Source: Sandaracinaceae bacterium
GTDB lineage: Bacteria; Myxococcota_A; Polyangia; Polyangiales; JADJQN01
Assembly: GCA_947483975.1 (NCBI GenBank)
Contig: CANKOL010000008.1
Location: forward strand, 1-35,749
Length of the DNA stretch: 35,749 nucleotides
Direction of reading: 5' to 3'
Under the pieces are notes generated by a model that did no database searches, was not told the origin of the DNA, and was given only the letters and a program-made list of their open reading frames with translations. The position numbers and the translations under genes are program-made. Position 1 is the stretch's first letter. Each line of letters begins with the position of its first letter. Shown here one piece after another: positions 2,587-24,912 of the stretch.

Positions 2587-3745
2587 ATGTCGATGACCGT
2601 CAGCGAGTGCCGCGATTCTCTCGCGAACTTCGCTCAGCGCCTGGATGCGCTGGGGAGGTACCTTTGACGTCCCTGACCTGCGCCGGAAGCTCCGCGAGCT
2701 AAACGACCGCACCACGGCCGAGGGCTTCTGGGAAGACCCCGACCGTGCTCAGACGATGCTGCGCGAGCGCGCGGCCGTCGAAGAGCAGATCACCACCTTC
2801 GAGAAGCTCAGCACGTCCGTGAAGGATCTCGGCGAGCTGCTCGAGATGGCCGTCGCCGAGGGCGACGAGTCGATGATCGAGGACGTCGGCACGCAGATGC
2901 CGGACCTCGAGCGCGGCATTCGCACGATGGAGGTCGCGCGCATGCTCTCCGGCGCGGAGGACCGCTCGGACTGCATCGTCACGATCCACCCCGGCACCGG
3001 CGGACTCGACGCGCAGGACTGGGCCGCGATGCTCATGCGCATGTACCTGCGCTGGTGCGAGCGGCGCGGCTTCAAGACCGAGATCATCGACCGGCAGGAC
3101 GACGAAGCCGGCATCAAAGAGGTCTCGTTCCTCGTGCGCGGCCCGTACGCGTACGGCTTTCTGCGCGCGGAGGGCGGCGTGCACCGCCTGATCCGCATCT
3201 CGCCCTTCGACGCCAACGCGCGCCGTCAGACCGCGTTCGCCGCGGTGTTCGTCGTCCCCGATCTCGACGAGGGCAAGACGGATATCGTCATCAAGGCGGA
3301 GGATCTCGAGGTCGACACCTTCCGCTCGGGTGGCAAGGGCGGGCAGCACGTCAACAAGACCGAGTCCGCCATCCGCATCACGCACATCCCCACGGGGATC
3401 ATCGTGAAGTGCCAGGCGGAGCGCTCGCAGCACAAGAACCGCGCGAGCGCGATGAAGATGATGCTCGGCTTGCTCTACGAGCGTCGGCGTCAGGAGCGCG
3501 AGGCGGAGTTCGAGAAGACGTACGCCTCGGACAAGATGGAGATCGGCTTCGGCTCGCAGATCCGCACCTACACGATGGCGCCCTATCGCCTCGTCAAGGA
3601 CGAGCGGACGGAGCTCAAGGTGAGCAACATCGACGCCGTGCTCGACGGCGATCTCGACGAGTTCATCGAGTCGTACCTCCTCTGGTCGGCGAATCGGAAA
3701 GCGCAGCGCCAATCTGGCTCTGCCGGAACGAACACGAGCCCATAG
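2587..3745 (+). CDS. prfB: Peptide chain release factor 2, expressed through a programmed +1 frameshift
   Basis: Frame 0 from ATG 2587 gives MSMTVSECRDSLANFAQRLDALGRYL, ending in CTT TGA (2662-2667); the +1 frame resumes at GAC 2666 and contains the RF2 SPF motif (RISPFD) and GGQ (GGKGGQHVN). Confidence 0.97.
2653..2668 (+). promoter_or_regulatory. RF2 programmed +1 frameshift cassette
   Basis: GGGAGG-TAC-CTT-TGA-C: internal Shine-Dalgarno, slippery CTT-T and weak stop context TGA-C. Confidence 0.95.
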
Positions 3746-16145: not shown

Positions 16146-16206
16146 GGTCTGCCGCGCGCGGGCGCCTGCTGTTTTGCGGCGCGGGCGCCGAGCACACGAG
16201 GGCCGT

Positions 16207-17082
16207 ATGCGCAGCATGACGGGCTTCGGAGCGGGGCAGGCCCCGCTCGGGACGAGGCGCGTGCACGTCGAGGCGCGCGCGGTGAACCATCGCTACCTCG
16301 AGGTCCGCGTGCGGATGCCGCGGGAGCTCGTCGATCAGGCCGCGTTCGTGGAGCAGCTCGCGCGCCGCACGACGGGGCGCGGGCGCGTCGAGCTGGTCGT
16401 GCGCCTCGAGGGCGAGGGAGCGGGCGCGCCTGTGCTCGACCTGCCGAAGGCGCGGGCGGCGCTCGCGCAGCTGAGCGCGCTGCGCGACGAGGTTCGCCCG
16501 GGCGAGGCGGTGCCGCTCTCGCTGCTGTCGTGCGTGCCGGAGCTGTTCACGCCGAGCGAGCCCATCGCCGACGAGGGCGCCCGCGAGGCGCTGACCGTCG
16601 CCGTCGAGCGAGCCTGCGAGGAGCTCGGGCGGATGCGCCTTGTCGAGGGGCGCGCGCTCGCGGTCGATCTGCGGACCCGCCTCGCGGAGGCGCGCGGGCA
16701 CCTCGCGGCGGTGCGCGAGCGGCTGCCGCACGTCGTCGCGGCGTACCGAGAGCGGCTGCGTGAGCGGCTCGCGCTGCTGCTGCGGAGCGCGGAGGTCGCG
16801 GTCGATCCGGCGCGGCTCGAGCAGGAGATCGCCATCTTCGCGGACCGCGCGGACGTCGCCGAGGAGCTCACGCGGCTCGACAGCCACACCGCGCAGCTCG
16901 ACAAGCTCTTCGAGGACGACGGCGACACAGTCGGCCGGCGCCTCGACTTCTTGCTGCAAGAGATGATGCGCGAGGCGAACACCATCGGCAGCAAGAGCCC
17001 GGACGCGGCGGTCACGATCCACGTCGTCGAGCTGAAGGCGGAGCTCGAGCGGATGCGCGAGCAGGCGCAGAACGTCCTCTGA
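16207..17082 (+). CDS. yicC: YicC/YloC family endoribonuclease
   Basis: MRSMTGFG start at 16207, 'AVNHRYLE', 'DVAEELTRL.SH', 'GRRLDFLLQEM.REANTIGSK', 'ERMREQAQN'; upstream of gmk. Confidence 0.94.
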   Translation: MRSMTGFGAGQAPLGTRRVHVEARAVNHRYLEVRVRMPRELVDQAAFVEQLARRTTGRGRVELVVRLEGEGAGAPVLDLPKARAALAQLSALRDEVRPGEAVPLSLLSCVPELFTPSEPIADEGAREALTVAVERACEELGRMRLVEGRALAVDLRTRLAEARGHLAAVRERLPHVVAAYRERLRERLALLLRSAEVAVDPARLEQEIAIFADRADVAEELTRLDSHTAQLDKLFEDDGDTVGRRLDFLLQEMMREANTIGSKSPDAAVTIHVVELKAELERMREQAQNVL

Positions 17083-17134: not shown

Positions 17135-17749
17135 ATGGATGAGCTGCTGCTGCTGATCGTTTGCTCGCCCTCCGGCGCCGGGAAGACGACGCTCACGCGA
17201 CGCCTGCTCGCGGAGCTACCGGAGCTCACGTTCTCCGTCTCGCACACGACGCGCGGCCCGCGCGCGAACGAGGTGCAGGGCAAGGACTACCACTTCATCC
17301 CGCGAGAGACGTTCGAGGGCATGGTCGCGCGCGGCGAGTTCGCCGAGTGGGCCGAGGTGCACGGCAACTTCTACGGCACGAGCAGCGCCGAGATCGCGCG
17401 CGCCAAGACCGAGGGCAAGCGCGGCGTCGTGTTCGACATCGACTACCAGGGCGCGCGGCAGATCCAGGCGAAGTTCAAGGAGGCGGTCGGCGTGTTCATC
17501 CTGCCGCCGTCCCTCGAGGAGCTCGAGCGCAGGCTGCGCGGGCGCGCGACGGACGCCGAGGACGTCATCCGCCGGAGGTTCGCGAAGGCGCTCGTCGAGA
17601 TCGAGCACTACCCGCTGCTCGACTACCTGATCGTCAACGACGACATCGACCGCGCGAGCGGCGAGCTGCGCAGCGTAGTGCGCGCAGAGCTTTGTCGGCG
17701 ATGGCGCATGGCGCCGCGGGCCGAGGCGCTGCTGCGCAAGAAGGGCTGA
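17135..17749 (+). CDS. gmk: Guanylate kinase
   Basis: P-loop SPSGAGKTT, SVSHTTR..R..E..GKDYHF, EWAEVHGNFYGT, DIDYQGA.Q, FILPPS.EEL..RL. Confidence 0.97.
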   Translation: MDELLLLIVCSPSGAGKTTLTRRLLAELPELTFSVSHTTRGPRANEVQGKDYHFIPRETFEGMVARGEFAEWAEVHGNFYGTSSAEIARAKTEGKRGVVFDIDYQGARQIQAKFKEAVGVFILPPSLEELERRLRGRATDAEDVIRRRFAKALVEIEHYPLLDYLIVNDDIDRASGELRSVVRAELCRRWRMAPRAEALLRKKG

Positions 17750-17811
17750 AGGGCTGGCGAGCCGCGCGGCGGCGACCGGCGCCAACCCGCGCCTGCGAGA
17801 ACGCCCGTCCG

Positions 17812-18084
17812 GAGCTGTTCAACAGGTCGCCCGAGGTCGCGTCACCGTCGCCTGACCTGTTCAACAGGTCGCCGGAGGTCGCGGCACCGTCGACCGACCT
17901 GTTCAACAGGTCCGCCCGCGGTCGCGGCACCGTCGACCGACCTGTTCAACAGGTCCGCCCGCGGTCGCGGCACCGTCACCTGACCTGTTCAACAGGTCCG
18001 CCCGCGGTCGCGGCACCGTCACCTGACCTGTTCAGCAGGTCCATGCGCGGTCAGCACACCGTCGCCTGACCTGTTCAACAGGTC
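17812..18084. repeat. Tandem array of seven 17-bp palindromes (GACCTGTT-C-AACAGGTC) with 42-43 bp period
   Basis: Copies start at 17812 (GAGCTG variant), 17854, 17896, 17939, 17982, 18025 (TTCAGCAGG variant) and 18068; the 25-26 nt linkers are homologous to each other. Confidence 0.97.
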
Positions 18085-18099
18085 GGCGGGCGGTTTCGA

Positions 18100-18121
18100 C
18101 GCCTTCGCCGGTGCGAAGGCG
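18100..18121. other. 9-bp hairpin between the repeat array and the RNA candidate
   Basis: CGCCTTCGC-CGGT-GCGAAGGCG; no U-tract; possible terminator or processing boundary. Confidence 0.5.
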
Positions 18122-18123
18122 CG

Positions 18124-18323
18124 CCGCCCCGGGTAGCTCGTCGAAGGGGAACAAGCTCGAACAACCTCAACCTTGGTCGGGGGCGACCCCACCCACGTTG
18201 AGGTCGACCCAGCCGGGCCGGAGGCGATTCTGCCCGAAATTGTTCAGGAATAGACTGGCCCAGCGTACAGGTCGCGCTGACCGAGGATGGCCTCCGCGGG
18301 GATCCGACCTAGCTACAGAGCGG
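18124..18323 (-). ncRNA. Candidate structured non-coding RNA (~200 nt), family not recognised
   Basis: Ends pair in three stacked segments (18317-18323/18124-18130, 18311-18316/18133-18138, 18303-18308/18140-18145) enclosing four internal stems; several pairs are G-U on the minus strand but A-C on the plus strand; no credible ORF. Confidence 0.6.
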
Positions 18324-18401
18324 TATCGGCTCGCAGTTTCGTGTCGCTGCACGGGCGAGCCCATCGGCCACCGCGCCGATCGGACGTCGCGCTGAGGCGT
18401 C

Positions 18402-21332
18402 TCAGCCGCCGAGCACCGGTGCGACGCGAGAGAGGCGCTCGAGGCCCTCGGGGCGGACGGCGAAGAGGAGCGCGTGACCGTCGATGGCGCCTGGGGTCCA
18501 GGGCGCGAAGGCGTGCCGGCCGGGGTAGTAGAAGCAGACGGTGTGCCCGGCGCGCGCGAGGGCGTCACAGGCGGCGCGAGGCTCGGAGCCGGGGACGACC
18601 TGCGCGACGAAGAGCGTCGCGGGGAGCGAGCGCGCGGCGGCGATGAGCGCTTCGACGTCGGTCTCCGCGCCGCTGTCTGCGCGGAGGCGCACGACGTCGG
18701 GGGCGGCCTCCGCGAAGAGCCCCGCCAGCGTGCGGTCGCGCGAGACGACGCGGACGTTCGAGTGACGCGCGGCGTTCACGCGCAGAAACGGAGCCTCTGC
18801 GGGCGAAGACGCGACGGTCGTGACGGCGCCGCGCGCGCCGACGACGAGCGCCGCGCTGACGGCGTACGCGCCGACCCCGCCGTCGAGGTCGAGCACGCGG
18901 TCGCCGTCGTCGAGCACCAGGCGCAGCACCGCGAGGTCGGGGTCGTACCAGTCGCCCTGCTCGAGCAGCGCGAAGGTGCCGGCGTGCGTGAAGGTGCCGG
19001 GCACGCTGAGCTCCGTGCCTTGAAAAGCGAGAGTGAGGCTCGGCTGCTCCGCGCCCGCGAGCGCGAGGGCCGCGTCGAAGCGTGGGTCCGTGGCGAACGC
19101 GCGCGCCGCCTCGAAGGCCGCTCGCACGGCAGCAGGCACGGGCTTGCCGGCCGCGCGCGCCTCGAGCGCGAAGAGCAGCCCGAAGCGGAAGTACGCCTCG
19201 GCGTTGGTCGGCTCGAGCTCTGCCCAGCGCAGCAGCAGCTCGTGGGGGCCCTGCCGCTCGAAGAACATCGAGTCGGCCGCGTACGAGAGGCATTGCCGCA
19301 GGAGCAGCCCCTCGACGCTCGGGGCGCCCCACTCGAGCAGCAGCAGCGGCGGGACCGCGCCCTCGGGCTCACCGCGTCGCAGCGCCTCGTATGCGCGCCG
19401 CGCATACGCCGCGGCCTCTCTGCGGCGACGCAGCTTGCCCGTCGCGTCGGCGAGCAGCGCAAGCTCAGCGACGCTCAGCGCGGAGCGACTGACGCGCGGC
19501 TCGCGGGCGCTCGCCTCCGCGGGCACCTCGAGGCGCGCGCTGAGCGTCGCCGGCGGGAGGCCGCGACACCAGCCGATCCACGCCTCGCGATAGACGCGCT
19601 CGAGGTCGTCGGTGAACGAGGCGCCGTCGGTCAGGCCGCGCTCGACGACGGTCGCGCGGAGCGTGCGCCGAAGCTCGGCGAGCCGGTCGAGATCACCGGC
19701 GAGCAGCGCCGCCTGCTCGACGTACGCGTCGCGCGTCGCGGCGGCCCACTCCGGGCGCCCGAGGCGGGAGAGCAGGCTGAGCCCGACGCGCGCGGCGTGC
19801 GCCCGGCCGACCAGCGACACCACCGGCACGCCCATCCAGAGCGCCTCGCAGGTGGTCGTCGTCCCGTTGTAGGGGAACGTGTCGAGCGCGAGGTCGACCT
19901 CGCCGTAGACCGCGAGGTGGCTCGTGCGCGCCGCCTCCCACGGGCGTAGCTCGAGCCGCGTCGCGTCGACGCCGTGCCGCGCGAACGCGTCGACGTAGCG
20001 GCGCCGCACCTCGGGGTCCGCGAACGGCTGCCCCTTCAGCAGCAAGCGCGAGCCGGGCACGCGCAGCAGCACCGCCGCCCACGTCGAGAGCACCTCGTCA
20101 TCGATCTTCGAGGTCGCGTTGAACGAGCCGAACGTCACGCGCCCCGCGCGGAGGGCGGGGAGCGGCGCGACGTCGGGCGCATCGTAGGGCGGCGTGTAGA
20201 CGAGAAAGCCGTGCGGGAGCCGCACGAGCGTCTCGGTGCTGAGCGCGGCGCTCTCTGGCGGGTCGGTCCAGCGGTCGACCAGGCGATACTGGATGGAGCG
20301 CAGCCCGGTCGTGCCCGGATAGCCGAGGTACGTCAGCTGCACGGGCGCCGGGCGCAGCGCGAGCACGCCGAGCCGGCAGTCCTCGGTGTGCCCCGCAAGC
20401 TCGACGAGGACGTCGATCTCGTCGCGGGCGATCAGCGCGGCGACCTGCCCATCGCTCAGCCCGACGACGGGGCGCCAGGCATGCGCCCAAGCCTCGAAGC
20501 GCGTGGTCGTCGCGTCGGGGCGCGCGACGTCCGAATACGCGTAGACGCGAAACTCGCGCGGGTCGTGCTCGGCGAAGATCCCCTCGAGGAAGTACGCGAC
20601 CGAGTGGGTCCGGAAGTCGGCCGAGAGATAGCCGATGCGCAGCGGACGCCGCTCGTCGGGGGTGTTGGTGTGGCTCGGCGCGGACGCGCGCGGCTCGTGC
20701 GCCTCGCCCCAGCGGCGGTGCTCGTCGAAGACGGTCTCGGGCGCGACGTTGCTCGGGTAGTGCAGCGTCAGGAGGAAGTTCGAGCGGACGCTCGCGTGCT
20801 CAGGGGCGAGCGCCACCGCCCGACGATGGAGGGCGACCGCCTCGTCGAGGCGCCCGACGCTCCGCAGCAGCGCGCCGAGGTTGCTCATCGCCTCGACGTT
20901 CGCGGGGTCGAGCGCGAGCGCGCGCTCGAAGGCGCGGATCGCCTCGCCGCTGCGCCCGAGGCGGCGGAGCGTCAGCGCGAGGTTGTTGTGGAGCGACGTT
21001 CGCTGCGGGTCGATCGCGAGCCCGCGGCGGTAGCTCTCGAGGGCGTCGTCGTAGCGCCCGAGGGCGTGGAGCACGTTGCCGCGGTTGCCGAGCACGCCGG
21101 CCGCGCGCGGCTCGAGCAGGAGCGCGGCGTCGAAGCACGCGAGCGCCTCGTCGTAGCGGCCGCGCTGCTGCTGCAATAGCCCGAGCGCGTTCGGGATCTC
21201 CCAGCGCGTCGGATCGAGCGCGGCGGCCTCCGCGTAGCGCGCCTGGGCGGCGTGCCACTCCCCGGCGCGCGCGTGCTCGCCGGCGCGCTCGAAGGCGCGT
21301 TCCACGGCGTGCGCGTCGGGCGGGCGAAGCAC
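18402..21332 (-). CDS. TPR-repeat GT41 (SPINDLY/OGT-like) glycosyltransferase with C-terminal extension ending in an FkbM-like methyltransferase fold
   Basis: Likely GTG start 21332 (the track's 21566 start overlaps the upstream gene); TPRs; LRIGYLSADFRTHSV, IDVLVELAGHT, PAPVQLTYLGYPGTTG, TFGSFN..SK, DTFPYNGTTTTCEALWMGVPVV; the tail has LLEQGDWYDPD and VLDLDGGVGAYA. Confidence 0.88.
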   Translation of the reverse strand: MLRPPDAHAVERAFERAGEHARAGEWHAAQARYAEAAALDPTRWEIPNALGLLQQQRGRYDEALACFDAALLLEPRAAGVLGNRGNVLHALGRYDDALESYRRGLAIDPQRTSLHNNLALTLRRLGRSGEAIRAFERALALDPANVEAMSNLGALLRSVGRLDEAVALHRRAVALAPEHASVRSNFLLTLHYPSNVAPETVFDEHRRWGEAHEPRASAPSHTNTPDERRPLRIGYLSADFRTHSVAYFLEGIFAEHDPREFRVYAYSDVARPDATTTRFEAWAHAWRPVVGLSDGQVAALIARDEIDVLVELAGHTEDCRLGVLALRPAPVQLTYLGYPGTTGLRSIQYRLVDRWTDPPESAALSTETLVRLPHGFLVYTPPYDAPDVAPLPALRAGRVTFGSFNATSKIDDEVLSTWAAVLLRVPGSRLLLKGQPFADPEVRRRYVDAFARHGVDATRLELRPWEAARTSHLAVYGEVDLALDTFPYNGTTTTCEALWMGVPVVSLVGRAHAARVGLSLLSRLGRPEWAAATRDAYVEQAALLAGDLDRLAELRRTLRATVVERGLTDGASFTDDLERVYREAWIGWCRGLPPATLSARLEVPAEASAREPRVSRSALSVAELALLADATGKLRRRREAAAYARRAYEALRRGEPEGAVPPLLLLEWGAPSVEGLLLRQCLSYAADSMFFERQGPHELLLRWAELEPTNAEAYFRFGLLFALEARAAGKPVPAAVRAAFEAARAFATDPRFDAALALAGAEQPSLTLAFQGTELSVPGTFTHAGTFALLEQGDWYDPDLAVLRLVLDDGDRVLDLDGGVGAYAVSAALVVGARGAVTTVASSPAEAPFLRVNAARHSNVRVVSRDRTLAGLFAEAAPDVVRLRADSGAETDVEALIAAARSLPATLFVAQVVPGSEPRAACDALARAGHTVCFYYPGRHAFAPWTPGAIDGHALLFAVRPEGLERLSRVAPVLGG

Positions 21333-21382
21333 GGAGCGACGGTGCAGGACCGTCCGGGGGAAGTCAAAGTCGGGACCAGTGC

Positions 21383-21416
21383 GCGCCGCTGCGCCGATGC
21401 GCCGCTGCGCCGCTGC
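21383..21416. repeat. Short tandem repeat (GCGCCGCT)x4 between the two GT41 genes
   Basis: gcgccgct gcgccgat gcgccgct gcgccgct gc. Confidence 0.7.
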
Positions 21417-21426
21417 TTCGACGGCG

Positions 21427-23205
21427 CTACGGCGCGGCGCTCGCCTCGAACGCGGCGAGGAGCGCCGCCTCGAACGCTCGCGTGACCCGCGCGCCGTCCG
21501 TGATGCCCGAGCGCAGCAAGCGCTCCCGCGCGCTCGCCCGCAGGTCCACGCGCCGCGGCGTGTCACGCAGCAGCTCCCGCGCCTTCTGCACGTACTCGTC
21601 GTCGCTGAGGGCGATGTGCTCGCTCAGCCCGAGGCGCGACAGCAGGCTCACGCCGACGCGCGAGACGTGCGCGTCGCCCGCGAGCGTCACGACGGGCACG
21701 CCCATCCAGAGCGCGTCGCAGGTCGTCGTCGTGCCGTGATAGGGAAACGAGTCGAGCGCGACGTCGACCTGCCCGTACGCGGCGAGGTGCCCGTCGAGCG
21801 CGGCCACGTGCCCGAGCAGCACGACGCGGTCGAGCGCGATCCCGTGCGCGACGAGGCGCTGCTCGACGAGCCTGCGCGTCGCCGGGTGCGAGAGGAAGCT
21901 CTCCTTGAGGAGCAGCCGAGCCTCGGGCGTCGCGGCGAGCAGACGGCTCCACAGCGCGAGCGTGCGCTCGGAGAGCTTGGCGAGCGCGTTGAAGGAGCCG
22001 AACGTCGGCGGGGCGCCCGTCGTCGACGGCGGAGCCACGACGTCGGGGCTCGGCGCGGGGGGTCGGTAGCAGAGAAAGCCGCTCTCGAGCCGCAGGAGAC
22101 GCTCGGTGTGCAGGGCGTCGTCGGCGGTGCCCGGGTCCGCCCACGCGTCGGTCAGCCGGAAGTCGACGCTCGCGAGGCCGGTCGTGTTCGGATAGCCGAG
22201 GTACGTCAGCTGAACGGGCGTCGGCCTTCGGGCGAAGACGCCGAGACGGTTGCCCTGCGTGTGGCCGCCGAGGTCGACCAGCACGTCGAGCGCGTCGCGC
22301 CGGAGCTGGGCGGCGAGCGCGTCGTCGTCGAGGCCGGCGGCCTCGGTGAACGTCGAGAAATGCGGCCGGAGGCGCGCGGTGACCTCGTCCGAGGCGCGCG
22401 ACGCGCTGTACGCGTGAAGCTCGAAGCGCTCCCGGTCGAAGTGCTCGAGCAGCGGCTCGAGGAAGAACGCGACGGAGTGCTTCCGTAGGTCCGCGGAGAC
22501 GAAGCCGACGCGCAGCTTGCGGCCCTCGAGCGGGCGCCGAGCCTGCGGCGGGAGCGGCTGCGCGAGCTGCGCGGCGACCTCGCCGTAGCGCCTGTGCGCG
22601 GCGAAGATCGTGTCGCGGCCGCGCTCGCTCGAGTAGTGCATCAGCATCAGCAGATTGTCGTAGTAAGAGAGCTCCGCGGGGGCGAGCGCGACGGCGCGCT
22701 CGAGGTGCGGCAGCGCGCGCGCGTGCAGCCCGAGCGACGAGCACACGAGGCCGAGGTTGCTGTGCACGCCGGCGTCGTTCGGGTCGAGCGCGAGGGAGCG
22801 CTCGAGGAGCTGCAGCGCCTCGTCGAGCTCGCCCGTGGCGCGCAGCACGCCGCCCAAATTGCGCAGCACGAGCGGGTGATTGGGATCGTTGCGGAGGGCC
22901 GCCCGCAGCTGCACGGCGGCCTCCTCCGCTGCGCCGCGCTGACCGAGCAGCACGCCGAGGTTCACGCGCGCCTCGAACGCGTCCGCGTCGATCGAGATGG
23001 AGCGACCGTACGCTTGCTCGGCCGCCGCGAACTCGCCGCGCGCGGCGTGCACCTTCGCGAGCACGAGCCACGCGAGCGGGCTGCGCGGCTCCTTGCGCAG
23101 GATCGCGCGGACCGCCTTCTCTGCCTCGGGCAGCCGCCCTCCCCGACGCAGCGCGTCGGCCTGCACGAGGTCGCGGTGCACGCGCGCGTCGTGCGGGTTG
23201 GCCAT
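21427..23205 (-). CDS. TPR-repeat GT41 (SPINDLY/OGT-like) glycosyltransferase
   Basis: TPRs, then LRVGFVSADLRKHSV, LDVLVDLGGHT, PTPVQLTYLGYPNTTG, TFGSFNALAK, DSFPYHGTTTTCDALWMGVPVV. Confidence 0.9.
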   Translation of the reverse strand: MANPHDARVHRDLVQADALRRGGRLPEAEKAVRAILRKEPRSPLAWLVLAKVHAARGEFAAAEQAYGRSISIDADAFEARVNLGVLLGQRGAAEEAAVQLRAALRNDPNHPLVLRNLGGVLRATGELDEALQLLERSLALDPNDAGVHSNLGLVCSSLGLHARALPHLERAVALAPAELSYYDNLLMLMHYSSERGRDTIFAAHRRYGEVAAQLAQPLPPQARRPLEGRKLRVGFVSADLRKHSVAFFLEPLLEHFDRERFELHAYSASRASDEVTARLRPHFSTFTEAAGLDDDALAAQLRRDALDVLVDLGGHTQGNRLGVFARRPTPVQLTYLGYPNTTGLASVDFRLTDAWADPGTADDALHTERLLRLESGFLCYRPPAPSPDVVAPPSTTGAPPTFGSFNALAKLSERTLALWSRLLAATPEARLLLKESFLSHPATRRLVEQRLVAHGIALDRVVLLGHVAALDGHLAAYGQVDVALDSFPYHGTTTTCDALWMGVPVVTLAGDAHVSRVGVSLLSRLGLSEHIALSDDEYVQKARELLRDTPRRVDLRASARERLLRSGITDGARVTRAFEAALLAAFEASAAP

Positions 23206-23302
23206 CGCCCTACGCCCCCTGTCGTCGAGGGCCCGCCGAGCGAGCGCAGAGGCGTGGAGAGCGCGCGAGAACCCCGAGACTCACGCGGCGATGCTGCGAG
23301 CG

Positions 23303-23332
23303 GCCCCGAGCGAAGTCAACGGCGCTCGGGGC
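23303..23332. other. Perfect 10-bp hairpin in the GMC-GT41 intergenic region
   Basis: GCCCCGAGCG-AAGTCAACGG-CGCTCGGGGC, about 35 nt past the GMC stop. Confidence 0.6.
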
Positions 23333-23367
23333 GTGCGTCGCGCACCGCTTCGTGGACTCACCCGCGC

Positions 23368-24912
23368 TCATGCGGCGTGCCCGCCGAGGTCCTCGACGAC
23401 GTGCCGCGCGACGCGCATCGCGAGCGCGTAGATGCCGATCTGCGGCGGGCCACCGAGCGACGTCGGGAACAGCGAGCCGTCGACGACGTAGACGGCGCGC
23501 ATCGTGTGGTGCCGTCCGCGCTCGTCGACGACGCTCGTCGCCGGGTCGGCGCCCATGCGCAGCGTGCCCATCGGATGCACCGCAGTCAGGCGCGCGTCGT
23601 GCGGGGCGAAACGCGACGGGAGCAGCTGATCGAGGTCGCGCTCCGTGCGGATGGTGATCGCAGGCAGCGCGGGGACGAGCACTTCCGTCGCGCCGGCGGC
23701 GAGCAAGATGCGCGCAGCGGCGCGCGCGCCGAGGGCGAGCTGCGCGCGGTCGGCTTCGTTGGGCACGTACGCGATGCGCACGCGGTCGCCGTCGAGCGTG
23801 ACGCGCCCCTCGGTCTCGTCGTGCACCATCGCCGCGAGCCCGACGAGGTGCGCGTAGCGGCGCAGCTGCCGAAAGAGCCCCGGACCAAAACCCGGGACGA
23901 GCGACGCCGTGCCGACGGGGTGCGCGAACGACGGTACGATCCACACGCGCTTGTCCGAGCCCGGGCGCAGGTCGAGCAGCTCCGTGCACTCGACGCTCTG
24001 CGGGATGCCGCGCCACGCCTCGACGCGCTCTTCGAAGACGCCCGCGACCGCGACGCCCGGATGCAGGCGCAGCCCGCGCCCGAGCTGCGCGTGCGGGTCG
24101 AGCAGCTCGCTCCGCAGCGCGATGGTCGCAGAGCCGATCGCGCTGCCCGCGAGACACAGCGCCTTCGCGCGCACCGAGAGCGTGCCGCGCACACCGCCCT
24201 TCCCGTCGCCGATGGTCGCGCGCAATTCGCGCAGCTCGCCGCGCTCGGTGCGAAAGCGGTCGACGCGCGTGTCGGTGTAGACGGTCGCCCCCGCGGCGAC
24301 GGCCTGCGGCACGAGCACGCGGCGCGCGTTGAGCTTCGCGTCGTAGGCGCAGCCGAGCTCGCAGAAGCCGCTGCCGACGCAGCGCTCGTCGCGGTTGTGC
24401 GAGAGGCGCCCGCCGCGGAAGCCGAGGCGGTGAATCCCGCGCTCGAAGATGCGGTTGGCCGCGTTGACCTGCGCGTCGCGGATCGGCGTCACGGAGAGCA
24501 GGCGCTCGACCTCGGTGAAGAGCGGCGCGAGCGCGGCGTCGGTGAGCCCCGTGAGCCCGTGCTCGTCGCGCCAGCGCGCGAGGATCTCCGGCGCGATGCG
24601 CTTGCAGAGGTTGGTGTTGTGCACCGTCGAGCCGCCGAGCCCGCGCCCGGACAGCACGAGGATGGCGAGGTCCTCCGTGTGCCGCCCGCCGAGCTCTTGG
24701 AAGAGCTCCGGGATCATCTCGTCCTCGCGCTGCGTGAAGTCCGCAGGCGCGTGGTCGCCGCCCTCCTCGAGCAGCACGACCGCGAGCCCGGCGCGCGCGA
24801 GCTCCCGCGCGGCCATCGAGCCACCCGCGCCTCCGCCGCAGACGACGACGTCGCACGTCTCGGAGCGGTCGCCGGGCGCGAGGTCGCGGCCGCGCACGAG
24901 CTGCCCGCTCAT
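23368..24912 (-). CDS. GMC family flavoprotein oxidoreductase
   Basis: ATG 24912 overlaps the upstream stop (ATGA); DVVVCGGGAGG...VVLLEEG FAD motif, GRGLGGSTV.N, CVGSGFCELGC, HPMGT.RMG, VVDGSLFPTSLG..P. Confidence 0.92.
   Translation of the reverse strand: MSGQLVRGRDLAPGDRSETCDVVVCGGGAGGSMAARELARAGLAVVLLEEGGDHAPADFTQREDEMIPELFQELGGRHTEDLAILVLSGRGLGGSTVHNTNLCKRIAPEILARWRDEHGLTGLTDAALAPLFTEVERLLSVTPIRDAQVNAANRIFERGIHRLGFRGGRLSHNRDERCVGSGFCELGCAYDAKLNARRVLVPQAVAAGATVYTDTRVDRFRTERGELRELRATIGDGKGGVRGTLSVRAKALCLAGSAIGSATIALRSELLDPHAQLGRGLRLHPGVAVAGVFEERVEAWRGIPQSVECTELLDLRPGSDKRVWIVPSFAHPVGTASLVPGFGPGLFRQLRRYAHLVGLAAMVHDETEGRVTLDGDRVRIAYVPNEADRAQLALGARAAARILLAAGATEVLVPALPAITIRTERDLDQLLPSRFAPHDARLTAVHPMGTLRMGADPATSVVDERGRHHTMRAVYVVDGSLFPTSLGGPPQIGIYALAMRVARHVVEDLGGHAA

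Follow-up and report, generated by a model that had tools for sequence, protein, structure and literature searches.

The window analysed here is a stretch of 35,749 nucleotides from a Sandaracinaceae bacterium (assembly GCA_947483975.1, genome G000; contig CANKOL010000008.1, positions 1 to 35,749). The names of homologues point to a myxobacterium of the Polyangia type. Around its middle, a tandem array of palindromes lies between two convergent genes, with the following features.

17135 to 17749, plus strand: gmk (guanylate kinase, Pfam PF00625), the left neighbour, which stops 62 bp before the array
17812 to 18084, no strand: palindrome array of seven 17-bp dyads, GACCTGTT-C-AACAGGTC, with a 42/43-bp period and six homologous, drifting linkers of 25 to 26 bp
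18164 to 18209, no strand: inverted pair of a dispersed REP-like repeat, 80 bp past the array
18402 to 21332, minus strand: TPR and glycosyl transferase 41 (GT41) gene (Pfam PF13844 plus TPR), convergent with gmk; its start is that of a hexamer gene model, and the longest ORF begins at 21566
21427 to 23205, minus strand: second TPR and glycosyl transferase 41 gene, whose nearest match (71%) is on another contig of the same-genus genome G001
17750 to 23378: block that G001 lacks between the gmk and GMC oxidoreductase genes, with the array at its left edge

The gmk and GMC oxidoreductase genes are direct neighbours in G001, where a few smaller gaps differ as well. One of these concerns the yicC gene upstream of gmk (window positions 16174 to 17082), which lacks a match at the corresponding position of G001. 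A release factor gene with PCRF and RF-1 domains occupies window positions 2645 to 3745. The initial annotation had set the array downstream of gmk and considered a chromosome-organisation site there. A gmk-linked or unique site of that kind did not survive the comparison: no array follows gmk in any of the five relatives checked (G001 to G005), no ParA or ParB family member was found among the 41 window ORFs scanned (the single ParB_N match in the assembly is on another contig), and the genome holds about 40 arrays with different dyads. Because none of the five relatives has an array after gmk, we do not tie the array functionally to that gene; judged from these sequence comparisons, it lies at a rearrangement junction rather than being a feature of gmk.

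Recounting reproduced the structure first described. The dyad GACCTGTTNAACAGGTC matches seven times, starting at 17812, 17854, 17896, 17939, 17982, 18025, and 18068 (spacings of 42, 42, 43, 43, 43, and 43 bp); five copies are exact and two carry one mismatch each, against a chance expectation of 0.03 matches per window (mean of 100 shuffles). Linkers 4 and 5 are identical, and linkers 2 and 3 have a common 3' end. The initial annotation had called the array noncoding, and all six frames score so (−0.69 to −1.31, compared with +0.59 for gmk). Its dismissal of CRISPR also stands, given that the linkers are homologous, two of them identical, that no cas genes occur among the 41 window ORFs scanned, and that an Rfam search over the array gave no match. 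Neither a sigma-70 promoter nor an intrinsic terminator was found at the array, and no terminal inverted repeats were seen bracketing it.

The array is also present in public lake and freshwater sequencing runs. In a run from a different study (X11), a 773-nt contig starts ahead of the array and continues across four dyads, showing 13 differences; because this contig covers four dyads in one piece, we reject the assembly artefact that the initial annotation had allowed for. All seven of the differences listed (out of the 13) fall in linkers and none in dyads. Among seven runs examined, no contig spans the whole array, and the copy number of seven is therefore that of this one assembly. In another run (X6), a contig joint omits 171 bp, exactly four array units, which, as read from assembled contigs only, points to copy number variation among strains. 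A doubly changed, still symmetric form of the dyad occurs in two sister-strain runs, and in such runs the array dyad has at least three left flanks besides this one. A sister-strain contig of 3,561 nt (X13), which joins the window at 18388, carries some 2 kb not found here to the left of the GT41 3' end; this extra DNA is joined to a match of 28 letters to the dyad. In G000, nothing matched five flank probes derived from contigs of sister strains.

The search of this genome and its relatives that the initial annotation had proposed yielded a single locus: allowing up to two mismatches, the dyad has seven sites, all in this array, in an assembly that is 81% complete. It is absent from the 60 relatives searched, the paired-dyad pattern is found in none of 400 genomes of the order, and no plasmid match for the array was found. 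A scan of metagenome contigs with the dyad pattern gave seven loci. At one of them (L149), the dyad occurs seven times at spacings of 43, 43, 43, 42, 43, and 42 bp, with two alternating linker types that are unrelated to the linkers of the 17812 to 18084 array; L149 lies between convergent genes and has no gene of the helical type described below. A second locus (L154) has three dyad copies at 43 bp, and the remaining five have 20- to 21-bp spacing, two of them being apparently coding. On the unrelated contigs L151, L152, and L153, the core of the array dyad recurs at 20 to 21 bp, half the period. Single-dyad matches were set aside as chance (108 stretches in 596 Gb, with about 139 expected; 80 are listed, each with one site), as were seven lone viral matches. 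The two-dyad pattern occurs at two loci in viral contigs, neither of them a 42-bp array, and kinship with the dyads of C131 or L163 through a common 9-bp core was not above chance.

We are highly confident that the array belongs to a genome-wide class of palindrome arrays locked at a period of 41 to 43 bp. With coding status judged by our own hexamer gene model, 24 noncoding arrays (at least three copies, at least 80% match) have this period, whereas the same criteria return 0 to 2 arrays per period at 33 to 40 and 44 to 100 bp, except for three at 85 bp. An independent exact-lag count in the genome found 20 loci at 42 bp and 0 to 1 at 44 to 47 and 52 to 53 bp. A looser list contains 39 noncoding arrays with periods of 40 to 44 or 83 to 86 bp, which comprise several dyad families, recurring at several loci of G000, and many singletons. 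The spacing near four DNA turns noted in the initial annotation is thus found across unrelated sequences.

Tight dyads occur in 22 of 36 arrays at this period versus 8.3 expected, and in 12 of 77 at other periods versus 13.5 expected, figures from a consensus-based test that replaced a first test, in which the core showed no excess over a null of perfect arrays. Palindromes spanning the whole unit were rejected, the outer arms being complementary at just 0.38 versus 0.29. We did not use the histogram of dyad spacings as evidence, because the arrays were chosen by period and the argument would be circular. Deviation from consensus per base is 0.038 in dyads versus 0.082 in linkers over 18 arrays and 0.061 versus 0.158 over 17 gene-linked arrays, two sets that overlap and in which family members are not independent. 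Along with the linker-only changes listed for X11 and the dyad kept at L149, these values agree with the expectation in the initial annotation that the dyad would be the better conserved part. The lower variation of dyads could alternatively come from hairpin-templated repair.

The class is linked to a family of helical proteins. Directly 3' of 5 of the 39 arrays lie genes of one all-helical family of about 300 aa, of which a profile search finds nine members in G000, three of them followed by a HerA/DUF87-like ATPase gene. Of the eight G000 genes of this family whose 5' end is intact, six pass a cutoff for periodicity that 41 of 3,987 genes reach. The family is present in 76 of 201 genomes of the order and has 4,531 representatives at 50% identity. 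At helical-gene loci of other genomes, the top lag is 41 to 43 bp upstream in 22 of 29 and downstream in 3 of 29, these 29 being a selected subset of the matches, namely the highest-scoring loci with one taken per genome. Five genomes with helical families have 10 arrays in 1.03 Mb, one of them (G102) having none in 140 kb, and three sampled genomes without either family, two of which are incomplete (70% and 85%), have one array, likely coding, in 1.06 Mb (p = 0.005, a value overstated by the relatedness of genomes and of array families).

Between array and gene, the motif GCAAC-N16/17-CGA is present in 26 of 36 cases. The motif also precedes unrelated genes and so is likely a general ECF-type promoter. 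A second helical family, of about 255 aa and with 144 relatives (for example, C47:9845-10615 [L237] and C127:1935-2699 in G000), shares with the first its PGxPGxxPF tail and its promoter motif; phased repeats lie upstream of its genes in several cases, some at 21 to 22 bp, and the profiles of the two families match with a probability of 40%. The helical protein is predicted to be all-helical (pLDDT 87), and ten of its arginines show conservation of 80% or more across the family. No recognised DNA-binding fold was found in it, neither family shows a motif or fold of a nuclease or recombinase, and fold searches with both returned generic bundles only (best Z scores, 8.7 and 8.1). Residues 101 to 205 or so of the first family match Avd and 23S-IVP four-helix bundles at a Z score of about 7, also in Atlas, and these matches are indistinguishable from generic bundles. 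For two helical proteins, Atlas gives DUF6261 as the closest family with a name (0.79 to 0.80), a lead to possible homology; in Pfam, including PF19775 (DUF6261), none of 35 helical family members has a match.

We postulate, with middling confidence, that the array at 17812 to 18084 is an orphan from a cassette made up of an array, an ECF-like promoter motif, a helical gene, and often a HerA-like ATPase gene. In such a cassette, a protein with two-fold symmetry, for which the helical protein is the simplest candidate, would dock on each dyad, and sites four turns apart would be aligned on one face of the DNA, an arrangement that the geometry of sopC (see below) also suggests. That the helical protein itself binds the dyads is plausible, and we rate it somewhat short of an even chance. 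Array sequence tracks the protein tree weakly (Mantel r, 0.23): the L163 and L167 proteins are 74% identical yet their dyads differ, and distant proteins have a common dyad. Such weak tracking is a poor fit with one protein per dyad.

The main rival to docking is a duplicating activity with a 42-bp reach, in which an activity of the cassette or the host nicks or misrepairs DNA at the palindrome and duplicates the adjoining segment, leaving arrays of any sequence at many sites that are products without function. Such an activity would accommodate the poor agreement of dyads with the protein tree, the lack of sequence relationship between array families, and the occurrence of arrays where the helical gene family is present. 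It would also account for the narrowness of the period (20 loci at a lag of 42 bp and 0 to 1 at 52 to 53 bp, a spacing that helical phasing by itself would permit as well). It has more difficulty with L149, where dyad and period are kept with two unrelated alternating linkers, beyond what fresh duplication would leave, with the position of arrays on the promoter side of genes, and with the absence of a nuclease or recombinase motif or fold from both helical families. We consider this explanation unlikely. Upstream of L148, L164, L165, L166, L170, and L133, many units have a second dyad, often A/T rich, about half a period away, and a similar second dyad is common to one protein clade.

The array could also be transcribed behind gmk into an RNA of repeated hairpins that acts as a sponge or as a repeat RNA of the type III toxin-antitoxin kind. 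Type III toxin-antitoxin loci have a repeat array before a gene, a layout that the array-before-gene order of the cassettes resembles, and the array strand folds far better than shuffled sequences (z, −7.2), as expected of any palindrome array. Changes within dyads show no hairpin bias, transitions that would keep G-U pairing on the sense strand not being favoured (10 versus 18; p = 0.18), which agrees with the statement in the initial annotation that a 1-nt centre keeps the dyad from closing fully as a hairpin. The dyad centres are mostly 0 to 2 nt, and in cassettes a promoter-like motif comes after the array. A type III repeat RNA was rejected at this locus on the lack of an Rfam match and of a co-oriented gene following the array, and an RNA element of any of these kinds seems to us extremely improbable.

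This array has the noncoding 41- to 43-bp period and the tight, better-kept dyad of the cassettes and lacks their motif and gene. The best promoter motif score near it is 6.0, compared with 15 to 26 for 25 of 26 training sites; no cassette leader, helical gene, or gene relic was found beside it; and no cassette units match its dyad above chance. We class it as an orphan because the GCAAC-N16-CGA motif and a helical gene are missing downstream, and it is probably a stray copy or deletion remnant of an array and helical-gene cassette. Orphans are common: about 33 of the 39 arrays in G000 and all five sampled in G045 have no adjacent family gene. Two of them (C38 and C208) have, besides the array, 96 to 154 bp of leader in common with cassette C304, the homology ending near the promoter, where it is followed by the same REP-like repeat as at 18164 to 18209; C38 retains 17 nt of the gene start. 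The flanks of a third (C56) are common with cassette C51, and an orphan array in G001 retains the promoter motif. A remnant origin is demonstrated for a handful of arrays only, most arrays being orphans. We speculate that orphans arise by loss of the gene part or by copying of the upstream part only, often beside REP or MITE repeats, and that slippage then adds or removes units; orphans may even so continue to titrate the protein.

The REP-like repeat has 69 sites in 31 clusters in the assembly. Several of these clusters, in tandem or flanking, accompany genes that are RAYT-like by eye (C460, C7, C127, and C139), and at C47:14032-14685 in G000 an array of GC-rich hairpins with a 40-bp period comes after a different RAYT-like gene. 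A dispersed element of about 160 bp (73 to 85% identity; G000 C42:12496-12705 and 12 others) adjoins a 41- to 42-bp array in 5 of its 13 matches. Repeat traffic of this sort is central to another explanation, that the array is a neutral minisatellite moved by REP or MITE elements and linked to helical genes through common hot spots for mobile DNA. The varying copy number among strains, the REP-like pair 80 bp away, the adjoining 160-bp elements, and the position at a rearrangement junction are all consistent with it, as is the co-occurrence of arrays and REP repeats (5 of 27 versus 15 of 310 long intergenic gaps, a comparison confounded by gap length). It leaves unexplained why unrelated sequences keep a 42-bp period, why the dyad excess is confined to that period, and why arrays lie on the upstream side at 22 of 29 genes, and terminal inverted repeats around the array were not seen. 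We regard a neutral minisatellite as rather unlikely.

The number of orphans admits a further reading, in which they are functional loading sites across the chromosome, this copy being active, and the helical protein with a HerA-like motor organises, marks, or moves DNA through about 40 arrays. Orphans do outnumber gene-linked arrays, dyad families occur at several loci of G000, the sister-strain runs add at least three left flanks, and symmetry is preserved through the double change of the dyad. Even genomes of the same genus do not keep the position, however; both helical gene families are missing from the close relatives G002 and G003; and several orphans resemble truncated leaders. This reading strikes us as very unlikely, and the copy at 17812 to 18084 is itself likely vestigial.

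A broader conjecture, to which we give a small chance, is that the myxobacterial helical proteins and Bacteroidota DUF6261 form one cross-phylum system: a helical dimer would read a swappable palindrome on a four-turn ruler, a HerA-type motor would act on the loaded DNA, and the system would seed or maintain dozens of arrays per chromosome, including this one. An array pattern scan of 151 genomes matched two, through a 21-bp repeat that is likely coding and through a contig-end array without a DUF6261 gene. In a genome of another phylum (G598), L232:60-500 is a degenerate 41- to 43-bp array of TTGAGGTCAA-like sites that reaches the contig end.

In our judgement the array class lies outside known kinds of repeat, and a literature search with limited reach into subscription journals found no published description of it. 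According to the cited description, F-plasmid sopC, which is bound by SopB, consists of 43-bp direct repeats that each contain one 16-bp inverted repeat (PMC3177203). The array resembles it in having tandem repeats of about 43 bp that each hold an inverted repeat, of 17 bp here. Unlike sopC, it has no ParA or ParB gene nearby, its class comprises dozens of chromosomal arrays with different dyads, the dyad has an odd 1-nt centre, and the protein of the class is an unrelated helical bundle. A partition site of the sopC/parS type was rejected on the missing adjacent parA/parB operon (41 ORFs scanned).

Short extragenic palindromes with an 8-bp arm, located between convergent genes, also recall the CGTC REPs, described as having 4- to 5-nt loops, a CCA-type tail, high copy number, mostly head-to-head dimers, and a tag that abuts an 8- to 9-bp stem (PMC3733652). 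Here CGTC stands 4 nt before the dyad in six of seven units, the centre is 1 nt, units run head to tail, and the assembly has a single locus. Set against REPs as so described, we therefore reject GTAG/CGTC REPs and BIMEs for the array; of the REP/BIME alternative in the initial annotation, what holds is the presence, 80 bp away, of a separate family of REP-like repeats.

As far as the cited account of MITE464 goes, the 41-nt array inside it comes closest among published repeats. In Porphyromonas gingivalis, MITE464/PgRS and BrickBuilt are described as dispersed intergenic tandem repeats of 41 or 23 nt, bounded by IS5-type terminal inverted repeats and each of one sequence family (PMC4596501). 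Compared with elements of that description, terminal inverted repeats are not seen here and the period is common to unrelated sequences; the 5.6-kb block differs in G001, so there is no clean empty site for comparison with a MITE. Novelty belongs to the class, of which this copy may be a vestige. What defines this repeat class is a constant length instead of a sequence, and it is linked to a protein family that is very large and has no name. Its cleanest natural control is the recurrence elsewhere of one dyad and period with wholly different linkers, along with the symmetric double change. Next to the partition sites, REPs, and MITEs described so far, the class points to a so far unknown DNA-binding or repeat-making mechanism.
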